Assembly (NCBI GenBank): GCA_963727635.1
Contig: CAVSHP010000024.1
Coordinates: forward strand, 68,818-132,817
Length of the DNA stretch: 64,000 bases
Reading direction: 5' to 3'
DNA from: an uncultured Gammaproteobacteria bacterium
Lineage (GTDB): Bacteria; Pseudomonadota; Gammaproteobacteria; Xanthomonadales; SZUA-36
Shown: piece by piece, positions 37,987 through 44,369 of the stretch
How positions within the stretch are numbered: position 1 is the stretch's first letter
How the letters are laid out: each line of letters begins with the position of its first letter
The notes under the pieces: generated by a model
Databases searched by the model: none
Told to the model about the DNA's origin: nothing
Seen by the model: only the letters and a program-made list of their open reading frames with translations
Program-made: the position numbers and the translations under genes

Positions 37987-38031
37987 TGGTGACCAGAGGT
38001 GGAATCGAACCACCGAAAAGAGGATTTTCAG
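37987..38031 (-). repeat. Partial copy (3' half, anticodon loop to CCA) of tRNA-Phe; distal att-like repeat P1 (3 mismatches)
   Basis: TGGTGACCAGAGGTGGAATCGAACCACCGAAAAGAGGATTTTCAG, compared with tRNA-Phe 44294..44338. Followed by conserved module E1 (38032..~38170). Confidence 0.75.
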
Positions 38032-38291
38032 AAGCAGCAATCAACTTTAAATTGGTATTAAATCAGTCGCTTGTGGTGTTTGTCCGATTGAACTGTGCCA
38101 GTAAACAGCAGTAAACGCCGGTGAATTTCAGGTGGTAGTACACAATTTCGACACAATGCAATAAAAGACTTCAATTATCCGAGTATCAGCATTTTGTCTT
38201 CAAGCGGCCATGCGTTGAGCAATTTTCTGATCATCTTCAATTACCGCAAACGGTCACTTTGAGACATTAACAGCAACGAATTACAGACAAT

Positions 38292-38325
38292 AAAAACCCG
38301 CCCAAGGCGGCGGGTTTTATCTTTT
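38292..38325. terminator. Bidirectional rho-independent terminator
   Basis: AAAAACCCGCCCAAGGCGGCGGGTTTTAT: GC-rich hairpin flanked by A-run and T-run. Sits just downstream of the minus-strand gene ending at 38345. Confidence 0.7.
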
Positions 38326-38344
38326 CAGGAGCTTATTTTCCGCA

Positions 38345-38986
38345 CTAACTGCGTCTGGCCGATGTGCGAAAATGGAGTCCGGCCAAAACCAGCAAGACCA
38401 GAATTGTCACAACGAGCCCGTGGCTTGACAATGTCGGAATGGGTGTAGAGGGAGCCGCAACCACTGGTCCAGTGGACGCGAGAAGAACTGTCCTGCCCCA
38501 GTAGAGATTAAAATGGTCGATGTCTGCTGGATTTAGTGTGAGACCCGACTGGCTTCTTGTGTAGGGGCTCGTCATGACGGAGTTAGCATCGTAAGGACCG
38601 CCATCGAAAGAAACGTTGAAGCCATCTCCCGCGAGAAATGAATAATCGTCAGATCTAACATCGCTATCTATGAAGACCCAGCCACTAATCGCGTTCCCAT
38701 CAATTGCACCAGCGGGTTTATCACCAGTCTGCTCAAAGGGCACCCATGTTGTTACCGGGTTCCCCGCGCCATCCATCGGTACTAAGTACAAGAAGTTTGT
38801 CAATGATACGGGTGGTGTATACCCGGAGAAATCACCAGTGACCGTAAAGTCGAAGTCTGTAGCGGTGGAAGTGGTTACTTCCAGTGTCAGTGCCGCATTT
38901 GCCTGCACTGCTAGTAATCCAGCAATGACTAACGTTGCGGAGGCAACTATTTTTCTTAGTGATTTTTGCACGCCGAGTTTCCCCAT
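38345..38986 (-). CDS. Secreted protein with IPTL-CTERM-type C-terminal sorting signal
   Basis: Internal start MGKLGVQKSLRKIVASATLVIAGLLAVQA (signal peptide). C-terminus ...STPIPTLSSHGLVVTILVLLVLAGLHFRTSARRS has the IPTL motif, a TM helix and a basic tail. Confidence 0.55.
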   Translation of the reverse strand: MGKLGVQKSLRKIVASATLVIAGLLAVQANAALTLEVTTSTATDFDFTVTGDFSGYTPPVSLTNFLYLVPMDGAGNPVTTWVPFEQTGDKPAGAIDGNAISGWVFIDSDVRSDDYSFLAGDGFNVSFDGGPYDANSVMTSPYTRSQSGLTLNPADIDHFNLYWGRTVLLASTGPVVAAPSTPIPTLSSHGLVVTILVLLVLAGLHFRTSARRS

Positions 38987-39375
38987 CAATTTGTTGAAGT
39001 GCAGGTAGACTAGCATGACAAGCGCAAGCTTCTCAAGAACTACCCGAATCCGCCCCGCCGATCGCCACAAAGCGCTTGTCGTTGAATTGCCAGGGCAGGG
39101 TGGTGAATGCTAACGGTGCCCGTTCCGGGACGGCTAGATCCACCCAATGCTTCAGCCGCTGTCTACTAACGAGTTGAGCCAGTTCTGATGTTGACCGGTT
39201 GCTGCTTTAAGTGATGGAAGAGAGTGGCTAGCCGATTCTGCATCGTAAGCTGCCATTCATGCGGTACATAAATTCGACATAAAACAAATATTTGGGGTCA
39301 GAGTAAAGTGCCAGACTAAATCAACAGGCATCGACGAATTGTTGAGGACAAATGGGGCGAGATACCAGGTAAAAA

Positions 39376-39420
39376 TGGTGGCCAGAGGTGGAATCGAACC
39401 ACCGACACGAGGGTTTTCAG
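39376..39420 (-). repeat. Partial tRNA-Phe 3'-half copy P2, followed by conserved module E2 (39421..~39560)
   Basis: TGGTGGCCAGAGGTGGAATCGAACCACCGACACGAGGGTTTTCAG (1 mismatch to 44294..44338). Confidence 0.8.
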
Positions 39421-39800
39421 AAGCAGCAATCAATTTTAAAATGTAATTAATTCTGTCGCTTGCGGTGTTTGTCTGAATAGACTGTGCCAGTTAATGCTAG
39501 TAAACGCCGGTAAAACACGGCTGGTGGAGCACAAATCTGACACAGCGGATTACACCGGAATCTGGGCAATCTAATAAGCTGCCGTTGAGTCAAAGAATCA
39601 TGGGTGTCTGGTTTCTGTGTGGTTTCTGGCACCAGGTTCCAGAAGGTCATTCAAGTCATCGCCGGATGTGCCTTCACTGTAAGGGTGGATCTTTGCATAA
39701 CAGGCCTTCTCTTAAGGTGAAAAGGGCAATGGCCTCATTCCGCATGAGCTAGAATTATGGTCACTGGTGATCTTAACGTGTCGAAAAATACGGGAATCCA

Positions 39801-40556
39801 ATGGGTGATATGTTTAGTCTCTTTGCAGAACCGACTACATGGGTTGCGTTGGCTACATTGACGGTTATGGAAGTCGTGTTGGGTATCGACAATCTTATAT
39901 TCATTTCGGTGTTATCCAACAAACTACCGGAACAACAACGGTCTAAGGCCCGTACGCTAGGAATTGCAGCTGCTCTTGTCTTAAGGCTGGGGTTGCTTGG
40001 CACAATTGCCATGATCGTCAAACTTAGGACACCGGTGTTTGAAGTTTTTGAGCTTTCATTGTCGTGGCGCGATTTAATCCTGATTGCGGGCGGTTTGTTC
40101 CTGGTCTGGAAGGCGACCACAGAAATTCATCACTCGGTCGATCCCGATCCCGGCCCAGATCGCCTGAATCCTACCGTGGCTGTGACCAGTATGGCCGCCG
40201 TAATAGGACAAATCCTGTTGCTTGATTTGATTTTCTCTCTTGACAGTATTATCACGGCAGTTGGGATGACTCCACACATTCCGATTATGGTCATTGCAGT
40301 CATTATCTCGGTTCTTACAATGCTGCTGGCCGCAAATCCGTTGGCGAATTTCGTTCATGCCAACCCCACTATCCTGATGTTAGCCCTAGCCTTTTTGCTG
40401 TTGATAGGCACGACACTTGTCGCTGACGGTTTCGGTGCCCCCGTGGCCAAAGGCTACATCTACGCGGCGATGGCCTTTTCGGCATTTGTCGAGGGTCTCA
40501 ACATGATGGCCCGGCGTGCGCGACAGCGTAGAATTGCGCAGTCCGCTGCTTCGTGA
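39801..40556 (+). CDS. TerC-family integral membrane protein
   Basis: [23 protein letters not shown] and a second [10 protein letters not shown] repeat, both characteristic of TerC. Confidence 0.85.
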
Positions 40557-42563: not shown

Positions 42564-42857
42564 CTAGTGATAATCAGCTACTTCTACGTTCATGGGACCC
42601 ACCTCGCCCCACACAAAACAAATTCGGTATTGTTCATTAATGCGAATGCTGTGTTCAGCTTTCCTACTACCTGAAAGTTTTTCAAGGCGATTACCCGGTG
42701 GAACCTTGAGTTCATCCAAATGCTGAACAGAGTCGATCAGATCCAGCTTTCTTGATGTAATTCGCCAAAGTGTTTGTGGACAGGCCTTTCGGGCAGCTTT
42801 CGAATTAACACCATTGAAAATATCTTCAGTAGCTTGATCTTTGAACGATACTATCAT
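42564..42857 (-). CDS. higB: HigB-family (RelE/ParE superfamily) toxin
   Basis: Internal start MIVSFKDQATEDIF...KLSGSRKAEHSIRINEQYRICFVWGEVGPMNVEVADYH. Sits upstream of higA in the canonical toxin-first order. Confidence 0.8.
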   Translation of the reverse strand: MIVSFKDQATEDIFNGVNSKAARKACPQTLWRITSRKLDLIDSVQHLDELKVPPGNRLEKLSGSRKAEHSIRINEQYRICFVWGEVGPMNVEVADYH

Positions 42858-42941
42858 AAGGGCATGATAGCACGGAATCCATGCTATTCTAGATTGCTGG
42901 GTATCTAGACAAGGAACCCGACGAGGTGGCGGAGGCTGCGC

Positions 42942-43250
42942 TTGATGCCATGTCCGCGGAAACACCCTTGCGCCGGGTACATGGTGGTGCCCAACGAGCT
43001 CGAAGCCGACATCCTGGCCGGCTTCGATGAACCGGCTGAAGAAGAAAGCGAAGGGCCGAAAGTTGTTTACACCGGTGAAGATGTGAAGGTGCAGCTGTTT
43101 GGAACGACGGCCATCGTCACATTCAGGCTGGTAGCCACGCCGGATGATGGTTCGGAACTGAAGAATTACTTCAACACGGGGACGTTTCTCAAGCGGCGAG
43201 GCGAGTGGCGGGCGGTCGCCTGGCAGGCGACCGTTATTCCTGGCACCTGA
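42942..43250 (+). pseudogene. 5'-truncated DUF4440/SnoaL-like gene fragment
   Basis: Only the C-terminal half of the fold is present (VKVQLFGTTAIVTFRLVATPDDGSE...LKRRGEWRAVAWQATVI). The ORF begins immediately at the higB start. Confidence 0.4.
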
Positions 43251-43475
43251 GCAAAAACCTGCCAGGCGTCAAATTGATGGATTGGCCGGCAGCGTCCGGC
43301 CAGCAGCGGACATGCCCAGGCCGTCCGCTTTCGCGCGTCACAAAATACCGATCGCCAGTCTGCCGCGTTGACAAAACTCAATCGCGGCGTCGTATTCACT
43401 CCGGTTGTCGAAAAAGCCCGTCCCAGGCGGGCCTGGCAAAGTCATTTGCGTTAGCCTCCGAAGTGAAGCTCGGCG

Positions 43476-43871
43476 TCAGTTATTGAGGCGAGCGGTACAC
43501 TCCGCAATGAATTCGTCCGCGCACACAACGTAATCTGCTTTGGAAATATCTACATTTTCCAAGAATCCAGTTGCTTCGTTGATTGTGATGCAAATGTTGA
43601 AGTTCTGGTGACCGGCAATGGCGAACTCTAGGTGACGTAGATCTCCATTAGGCCGTAAGTAGTCAGCTCTCGCAGCCCTACGTCCCTGTTCATTGACCAC
43701 CGAACAGGACTGAAGACTATCGAATAGCTCGAATACCTCGACCCAGTCCATGAATGCGCTCGCGGAACAAACCTCGGGGCACGAAGGCTTGTCCGCCATC
43801 GCCATGGGTGAAGTGATGACGAAACCGGCGAGCAGGGCAGTCCGTGCAATTGAATGTAAACCTTTTATCAT
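43476..43871 (-). CDS. Hypothetical secreted Cys-containing protein
   Basis: Internal start MIKGLHSIARTALLAGFVITSPMAMA (signal peptide). No homology recognised. Confidence 0.4.
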   Translation of the reverse strand: MIKGLHSIARTALLAGFVITSPMAMADKPSCPEVCSASAFMDWVEVFELFDSLQSCSVVNEQGRRAARADYLRPNGDLRHLEFAIAGHQNFNICITINEATGFLENVDISKADYVVCADEFIAECTARLNN

Positions 43872-44124
43872 TGAAGTCTCCTGGTTGATGGGGTTGAAAA
43901 AGCAAGCGGCACGAACGCACACCTTAAGCACGTGACCTTGGTTGGAATGCCGCACCCCTCCAATGAACTATAGGTGAAAAATAATTATTTGCCACCCGGG
44001 CAGAGAGTATTTGAAAAGTTCCGTCAAGCGGATCGAGTAGCGGAACAGCCATTTCGTGTATACGAAAAGCAAAAAATCAGCGAGTGCGGTTAAGTTGAGG
44101 TTGGTTGTAAGCCACTGAAAAGAA

Positions 44125-44141
44125 TGGTGGCCAGAGGTGGA
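44125..44141 (-). repeat. Short (17-nt) copy of the tRNA-Phe 3' end, P4
   Basis: TGGTGGCCAGAGGTGGA, then divergent palindrome-rich sequence up to the intact tRNA. Confidence 0.6.
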
Positions 44142-44293
44142 CAAATCTGACGGGATCAGATTTGGTCGCACGCAGTGCGCCCGCAGGGGCGCGCACAAGG
44201 AGGTGCGCGAACAATCTAACCACGCATTGGTTCGGTTCGCCCTGTTGCCGGGAAAGCAGTTGATTGAAATGCTGCGGGGAAATATAAGAAAAA

Positions 44294-44369
44294 TGGTGGC
44301 CAGAGGTGGAATCGAACCACCGACACGAGGATTTTCAGTCCTCTGCTCTACCGACTGAGCTATCTGGCC
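44294..44369 (-). tRNA. tRNA-Phe (anticodon GAA)
   Basis: The reverse complement folds as GGCCAGA-TA-GCTCAGTCGGTAGAGC-A-GAGGACTGAAAATCCTC-GTGTC-GGTGGTTCGATTCCACC-TCTGGCC-A-CCA. Confidence 0.92.

Follow-up and report, generated by a model that had tools for sequence, protein, structure and literature searches.

Tandem integrase-free islets with a putative attP-type arm at the tRNA-Phe gene of an uncultured gammaproteobacterium

Recombinase-less packets of DNA, each with a recombination site of its own, that build up in tandem at a single chromosomal position and vary between strains are known from integron cassettes and from staphylococcal cassette chromosome (SCC) and pseudo-SCC elements at orfX. 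Lambda and P4 integrases bind both core and arm sites, and integration sites within tRNA genes reportedly fall into sublocation classes, as set out by Williams in 2002. Cis-mobilizable elements (CIMEs) are decayed integrative and conjugative elements (ICEs) or integrative and mobilizable elements (IMEs) retaining attL and attR without recombination and transfer genes, and an adjacent ICE mobilizes them in cis; ICESt1 and ICESt3 of Streptococcus exemplify how elements accrete in tandem at tRNA or other att sites (PMC5704250). At ssrA of Dehalococcoides, tandem islands are bounded by direct repeats of the 3′ end of this tRNA-like gene and vary in number by strain; an extra conserved sequence lies beside each repeat, and fifteen islands without an integration module have been proposed to be CIMEs (PMC3146451). 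The recombinase there is the serine recombinase DsiB, the repeat measures 20 bp, insertion takes place in the T loop of the tmRNA, and many of the islands carry the module (PMC3146451). Here we describe an array of three small islets at the tRNA-Phe gene in a 64-kb stretch (the window) of contig CAVSHP010000024.1 from an uncultured gammaproteobacterium, each islet lacking an integrase and each carrying a conserved arm fused to a copy of the tRNA 3′ half.

The 45 nt of tRNA-Phe from the anticodon loop to CCA (the core) recur three times in the orientation of the tRNA, and core copies flank every islet on both sides. The number of mismatches climbs with distance from the tRNA gene, from zero at 41993 to one at 39376 and three at 37987, the outermost copy (copy 1) being the most diverged and the last detectable; nhmmer found no tRNA-half copy beyond these three elsewhere in the window. 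The initial annotation, made from the sequence, had reported these repeats and their single orientation, and ARAGORN, pattern matching and shuffling (0 of 100 shuffles gave any match to the core pattern) bear it out. As in tRNA-integrated islands, a direct repeat of the 3′ part of the tRNA bounds the insertions on the 3′ side of the gene. The YggX gene adjoins tRNA-Phe, and a LuxR-type gene and a DDE transposase lie on the far side of the array (Pfam).

Each partial tRNA copy runs on into an arm of about 125 nt, on the side that the tRNA 5′ half would occupy. A repeat finder returned three copies of about 170 nt each as one family (D1), and the ungapped identity between arms is 70–77%, compared with 21–30% over the following 125 nt. 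Since each tRNA half extends into the arm, the repeat unit is about 170 nt rather than the 45 nt first reported, of which the tRNA part is confirmed.

The arm includes an AT-rich spacer bordering the anticodon loop, an invariant block of 19–26 nt that reads GGACAAACACCGCAAGCGAC in the tRNA orientation, and a partly palindromic GTGYACAAWTTGTRCAC; the block GTCGCTTGYGGWGTTTGTC gives 3 matches where 0.04 are expected. In particular, short direct repeats stand in helical phase about 50–80 bp from the core. Specifically, a 10-bp repeat that reads TTTACYRGC in the tRNA orientation and GYYRGTAAAY on the + strand recurs with exact 10-nt spacing, at offsets from the T arm fixed at −114, −104 and −94 in the window, L010, L011 and L014 (L-numbers designate related loci), against a background density of 0.18 per kb. 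In every unit three phased sites lie on one arm, and related repeats on the other flank occur only in window unit 1 and in L017/L018, suggesting that some units have sites on both arms. We propose that the TTTACYRGC repeats are putative arm-type integrase-binding sites, in a layout that resembles an attP arm of lambda- and P4-type systems. An isolated 18-nt stretch, AGTATACGCCGGTGAATT, at 52984–53010 of the window matches the arm-1 repeat region at 17 of 18 positions; the wider match has an nhmmer E-value of 0.023 and represents either a solitary binding site or chance.

The tRNA half with its arm also occurs in two gammaproteobacterial metagenome-assembled genomes (MAGs; L010 and L011) and in a Baltic metagenome contig (L012), with different cargo. 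A first genome-wide pattern, TCGCTTGYGGNGTTTGT...ACGCCGGT, gave no match, its second block being conserved in the window only; a pattern built around the tRNA part plus the arm recovered L010 and L011, and a second pattern recovered L012. Scans of IMG/VR for the arm returned nothing except one chance match (L013), and BLAST of the arm against plasmid and phage collections returned no match. The best YggX match is 93%, and TerC homologues are labelled Woeseiaceae or Gammaproteobacteria.

The clearest case is L010, a long-read MAG of a relative with a 1.5-Mb contig. Positions 4362–5697 of L010 are 96.2% identical to 43003–44338 of the window, and L010 carries one extra islet of 2.03 kb exactly between the intact tRNA and the next copy. 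The extra islet has the arm, two open reading frames (ORFs; 252 and 203 aa), perfect 47-nt repeats (47/47), no integrase and too little space for one, and the yggX-side core of L010 is 86.9% identical to that of the window. In L015, the TerC islet (95.1% identical to that of the window) lies directly at tRNA-Phe-yggX-mutY-ftsY, with the core at 82.5%. L012 has another islet, with ArsR, MBL-fold and MFS genes, after the TerC islet, and the arm of that other islet is 98.4% identical to window arm 2. Overall, islet DNA is 95–96% identical between genomes compared with 82–87% for adjacent core DNA. The array differences and identities in L010, L015 and L012 indicate that single islets are added at the tRNA and lie in different orders, and that islet DNA is better conserved than the host genomes. 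An att-type origin with serial outward stacking, as originally suggested, is well supported by the mismatch gradient, the extra L010 islet at the tRNA and the L015 and L012 arrays.

Among relatives, at least eight different sequences lie downstream of tRNA-Phe, and three contigs terminate exactly at the tRNA 3′ end. Two tRNA-Phe alleles are present, differing by a compensated anticodon-stem pair: GCGGA/UCCGC in L001, L002, L004, L006 and L007, and GAGGA/UCCUC in the window, L010, L015 and L017–L025. The arm-bearing tRNA-half copy in L011 is of the GCGGA/UCCGC type, so islets occur in both allele backgrounds. Also in L011, a Fic-family gene adjoins the displaced tRNA half between 47-nt direct repeats (4036–4082 and 5344–5390, 72% identity), the second of which is homologous to sequence directly downstream of tRNA-Phe in L002.

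The islets were reported to lack an integrase, and all searches agree. Pfam found no integrase among the local ORFs or, in a summary of the 42 other ORFs of the window, among the top 25 families listed, and tblastn of the window with a tyrosine-recombinase fragment from L004 found no integrase or remnant. Pfam on local ORFs and tblastn likewise revealed no relaxase or transfer-gene remnants in the islets. No ICE or IME lies within the window, and no parent element bearing the arm emerged from genome, metagenome, viral, plasmid and phage searches. On the far side of the array, tblastn with the LuxR-side protein gave no homologue beside tRNA-Phe in any retrieved relative; all that is common to them there is a motif of 19–22 nt, AAATGTATCCGRCCCCTTT.

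We consider it probable that the region is a tandem array of non-autonomous, attP-bearing islets at tRNA-Phe, inserted one by one by an integrase encoded elsewhere. A heterobivalent tyrosine integrase, binding core and arm sites, would act in trans or, from an autonomous neighbour, in cis, and would recombine a circular form of the islet with tRNA-Phe. Crossover in the anticodon loop would define a mobile unit that consists, in the tRNA orientation, of core, flank, cargo and arm; the incoming copy would restore the tRNA, and the old 3′ half would be displaced outward and then drift. The 0/1/3 mismatch gradient fits such outward displacement of old 3′ halves. Repeated events would stack islets, the most recent one lying closest to the tRNA, and any pair of copies could recombine to excise one or several of them; packets may also pass as DNA between cells. 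Because related genomes carry different packets at tRNA-Phe, the islets look mobilizable rather than like dead scars. They would resemble CIMEs and behave like cassettes.

Several points weigh against serial insertion of mobilizable islets. An integrase cognate to the arm was not found in the window, the related loci, IMG/VR, plasmids or phages, and neither a circular junction nor an empty site was observed in the data. The islet family was recovered from only four assemblies, and L012 and L015 are short-read metagenome contigs across a repeat of about 50 nt, so that they could be chimeric. In addition, the flank motifs on the tRNA-distal side are not common to all units. With three mismatches in copy 1 and what looks like rearrangement in islet 3, some units may be inactive by now, and apparent frameshifts in mutY and ggt mean that the window assembly may carry errors.

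An unlikely alternative is that the islets are fixed scars of at least three integrase-bearing islands that lost the integrase and most genes, the arm being inherited and now without function. This route of decay has been described for CIMEs (PMC5704250), and L004 carries an integrase fragment 95 nt downstream of tRNA-Phe, interrupted by an insertion sequence (IS). The initial annotation had likewise taken the islets for fixed remnants, and there is local decay to support this: copy 1 has drifted, the DUF4440 gene of islet 3 is truncated, and an IS4 element adjoins the array, 46 nt off. However, five independent islets (three in the window and those of L010 and L012) would each require a traceless deletion of the integrase that spared the cores and the arm; the L010 islet is still without integrase although its 47-nt repeats are perfect, and tblastn found no integrase remnant. 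Furthermore, block-wise conservation of the arm motifs across genomes reaches 98.4%, with unrelated cargo and unrelated adjacent DNA, and between genomes the islets differ less than the core does, which points to recent movement as small units. The fixed-remnant reading is therefore only partly right, and doubtful.

Site-specific recombination might instead have ceased altogether, the 45–170-nt repeats now serving as homology for RecA-dependent shuffling after DNA uptake, with tRNA-Phe/yggX as the anchor on one side and the core-plus-arm repeat on the other. All array differences end inside repeats, as homologous exchange would also predict, and no integrase is seen. We nevertheless regard this explanation as improbable: only about 45–54 nt of homology would be available at an intact tRNA, and shuffling leaves unexplained the phased repeats, the invariant blocks (70–98% across unrelated cargo and at random level beyond) and the related repeats on the other flank. 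Finally, it is very improbable that the arm with its tRNA half is a functional RNA or an attC-like single-stranded hairpin rather than a double-stranded protein-binding arm, a possibility already largely refuted, given that RNAalifold can pair the invariant arm block with the tRNA half around its T arm and variable loop but with an unfavourable covariation term (+2.8), a single compensated pair and non-significant fold z-scores of −2.2 to +0.3 on either strand, and that the one Rfam match, a truncated tmRNA hit, is an edge artefact that disappears once flanks are added.

Next to the tRNA lies a second kind of insertion. The 17-nt stub at 44125 had been noted previously and is located precisely: with its flank it matches 41984–42009 at 26 of 26 positions (repeat family D3), and together with the 3′ end of the tRNA itself it brackets a 152-nt element, E, as a 169-nt unit. 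Element E had been dismissed as a remnant of about 150 bp, but it is conserved and structured and is not debris. It is single-copy in the window and is kept in L010 (5501–5651) and in five contigs of another lineage (L021, 1891–2058, and L022–L025), with a mean column identity of 85%. The 17-nt repeat of the tRNA 3′ end follows E in L010 and L021–L025, and beyond it the sequences differ. Element E was not found in IMG/VR or in the plasmid and phage collections.

The predicted fold of E on the tRNA-sense strand has a closing helix, GUGGUUAGA/UCUGGCCAC, that mimics the acceptor stem of tRNA-Phe, includes two G·U pairs, uses the stub as its 3′ strand and encloses four hairpins. RNAalifold gives an energy of −50.5 kcal/mol, and fold z-scores are −5.4 to −6.7 for the sense strand and −2.5 to −3.9 for the antisense strand. 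Compensatory changes affect six pairs, among them three C-G to U-A swaps within a single hairpin of L010; paired cells make up 97.5%, and none of 500 shuffles attains the observed score. Rfam gave no match even at E ≤ 10, and ARAGORN calls nothing there. Since the 17-nt repeat starts in the T loop, E with its stub looks like a 169-nt insertion by a T-loop-type crossover; alternatively, E could be a structured RNA co-transcribed with the tRNA. In L012, a hairpin-rich insert of 52 nt (1799–1850) splits a displaced tRNA half exactly at the T-loop/T-stem boundary, the point at which the window stub starts, suggesting that the T loop is a second hotspot of recombination.

Joined into one picture, these elements would make up a tRNA-anchored cassette system in which a dedicated integrase, encoded elsewhere in the genome or by a helper element, captures, stacks and exchanges packets with an attP of about 170 bp at tRNA-Phe, in parallel to integrons but of lambda type, with E as either a structured RNA of a new kind or a miniature integrative element of 169 nt that exploits the same tRNA's T loop. 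We hold this combined reading only tentatively, and as a whole it is rather doubtful.

The islets are small (1.3–2.6 kb) and carry one to four cargo genes each, in either orientation, with non-coding gaps of at most 310 nt. Their GC content is 0.48–0.50 compared with 0.53–0.58 for the core. Table 1 collects the coordinates of the array, and its cargo follows the calls made at the outset (two TerC genes, higBA and a truncated DUF4440 gene, all supported by Pfam, weakly in the case of the DUF4440/SnoaL_3 match) with one qualification. The protein of islet 1 shows an IPTL tail by eye at its C-terminus (IPTLS, next a hydrophobic stretch and finally a basic tail); no HMM matched it. Motif TTTACCTGGTA directly follows copy 2, and the islet 1 flank after copy 2 is homologous to the tRNA-Phe flank of L017/L018, where the cargo differs again.

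Islet 2 is found in an independent contig (L014) at 99.96% identity over 39383–42013, and in L015 (95.1%) and L012 (88.4%) in a different array context each. A 14-nt overlap between the ends of L014 would allow a circle, a candidate we rejected because the overlap is accounted for by repeat-induced assembly breaks. More distant TerC-PGPGW homologues (L016, L026 and L027) lie in other contexts without tRNA repeats; those of L026 and L027, with 76–78% nucleotide identity, lie among IS110 transposases, VapBC and an rve transposase, and the TerC pair seems to be frequent mobile cargo. In islet 3, the DUF4440 ORF is shorter than in L010, where the DNA to its left differs, and the islet is probably a fusion of two former units.

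Table 1. Coordinates of the tRNA-Phe array and adjoining features (window positions unless a locus is named)
Feature	Coordinates	Strand	Evidence or remark
tRNA-Phe(GAA)	44294-44369	-	ARAGORN; Rfam tRNA, 74 bits; pattern match
Core O, tRNA-Phe 3′ 45 nt, anticodon loop to CCA	44294-44338	-	Pattern match
Copy 3 of tRNA 3′ half	41993-42037	-	45/45; pattern match
Copy 2 of tRNA 3′ half	39376-39420	-	44/45; pattern match
Copy 1 of tRNA 3′ half	37987-38031	-	42/45; pattern match
Element E, 152 nt, between tRNA 3′ end and stub	44142-44293	-	
17-nt stub, last T-loop base to CCA	44125-44141	-	Repeat family D3, spacing 169
Arm 1	38032-38155		Islet 1
Arm 2	39421-39544		Islet 2
Arm 3	42038-42161		Islet 3
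Three phased 10-bp repeats, arm 1	38101-38130 (sites 38101/38111/38121)	-	Fixed offsets from the T arm
Phased 10-bp repeats, arm 2	39490/39500/39510		
Phased 10-bp repeats, arm 3	42107 and 42127		Middle site 42117 degenerate
Most conserved arm block, GTCGCTTGYGGWGTTTGTC	38066-38084	-	Also 39455-39473 and 42072-42090
Islet 1	38032-39375		Arm, hairpin, IPTL-motif ORF, repeat-bearing flank
Bidirectional terminator-like hairpin, islet 1	38293-38318		
IPTL-motif protein ORF, islet 1	38345-39070	-	
Islet 1 flank toward copy 2, TTTAC-type repeats	about 39290-39375		
Islet 2	39421-41992		Arm, terC, terC-PGPGW, 105-nt flank
terC, islet 2	39801-40556	+	Pfam
terC-PGPGW, islet 2	40634-41887	+	Pfam
Islet 3	42038-44124		Arm, higA, higB, DUF4440 fragment, secreted-protein gene
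higA with HTH_3, islet 3	42237-42554	-	Pfam
higB (HigB-like toxin), islet 3	42564-42857	-	Pfam
DUF4440/SnoaL_3 C-terminal fragment ORF, islet 3	42942-43250	+	Weak Pfam match
Secreted protein, islet 3	43476-43871	-	
IS4-family insertion sequence	36663-37940	+	Inverted repeat I1; Pfam DDE_Tnp_1; NCBIfam IS4, 236 bits
AAATGTATCCGRCCCCTTT sites	36651-36669, 37936-37954; L007 1140-1158; L010 7633-7651		

The IS4 element beyond copy 1, bounded by terminal inverted repeats and by what appears to be a GGTCGGA target duplication, sits at the 3′ end of the LuxR-type gene (36103–36687), changing its C-terminus, and is not part of the islet system. In several genomes, the 19–22-nt motif AAATGTATCCGRCCCCTTT recurs 15–40 nt downstream from tRNA-Phe or from one of its copies, with weaker copies at 16878 and 17116 of the window. 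The IS4 insertion in the window has this motif as its target and splits it, and the motif cannot mark the ancestral flank because it is present within the islet flank of L010 as well. Across the array, on the tRNA side, mutY (44723–45765) and the gamma-glutamyltranspeptidase gene ggt (48394–50035) are each split into two overlapping ORFs, and relatives have single genes of 344–354 aa and 497–568 aa, respectively; the split genes are either frameshift pseudogenes or the result of indel errors in long-read assembly.

Tandem islands at tRNA genes and integrase-less CIMEs are already known and are usually read as the wreckage of larger elements. What is new here is that every unit is minimal, free of integrase and of its remnants, and equipped with a motif-rich arm, and that comparison gives signs of single-unit movement: in relatives, single packets are added or exchanged and appear to move between lineages. 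If a trans-acting integrase is confirmed, the array would represent a simple, integron-like route of gene capture in uncultured sediment and soil Gammaproteobacteria, and the core plus the TTTACYRGC arm would provide a sequence signature for island-prediction tools, which usually require an integrase gene. Element E is a separate lead, to a new RNA or a miniature mobile element.

Like CIMEs, the islets have attL/attR-type repeats, lack genes for integration and transfer and form a tandem stack at a target gene's 3′ end; unlike them, they are tiny, show neither an ICE or IME in the window nor integrase remnants, and vary as single units between genomes, which suggests independent movement. The Dehalococcoides islands share the tandem, repeat-bounded arrangement, the extra conserved sequence by the repeats and the occurrence of module-less islands, but the present core measures 45 nt and starts at the tRNA-Phe anticodon loop, the arm repeats are phased in a lambda-like manner, and no island carries a recombinase. 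Compared with an autonomous tRNA-integrated island, the array has the bounding repeats, the variable presence and the atypical GC content, but not an integrase of its own.

The attP sites of lambda and P4 are paralleled by a core that matches the tRNA between its anticodon loop and its 3′ end, by phased repeats and, in some units, by related repeats on the other arm, except that here the putative attP would lie on packets without integrase or excisionase. The array differs from an integron in having no intI, attI or Pc and no attC-like folding, in abutting a tRNA gene, and in its multi-gene cargo in both orientations, and from SCC in having no Ccr serine recombinase and no orfX target. What it shares with both is that recombinase-less packets with a site of their own accumulate in tandem and differ between strains.

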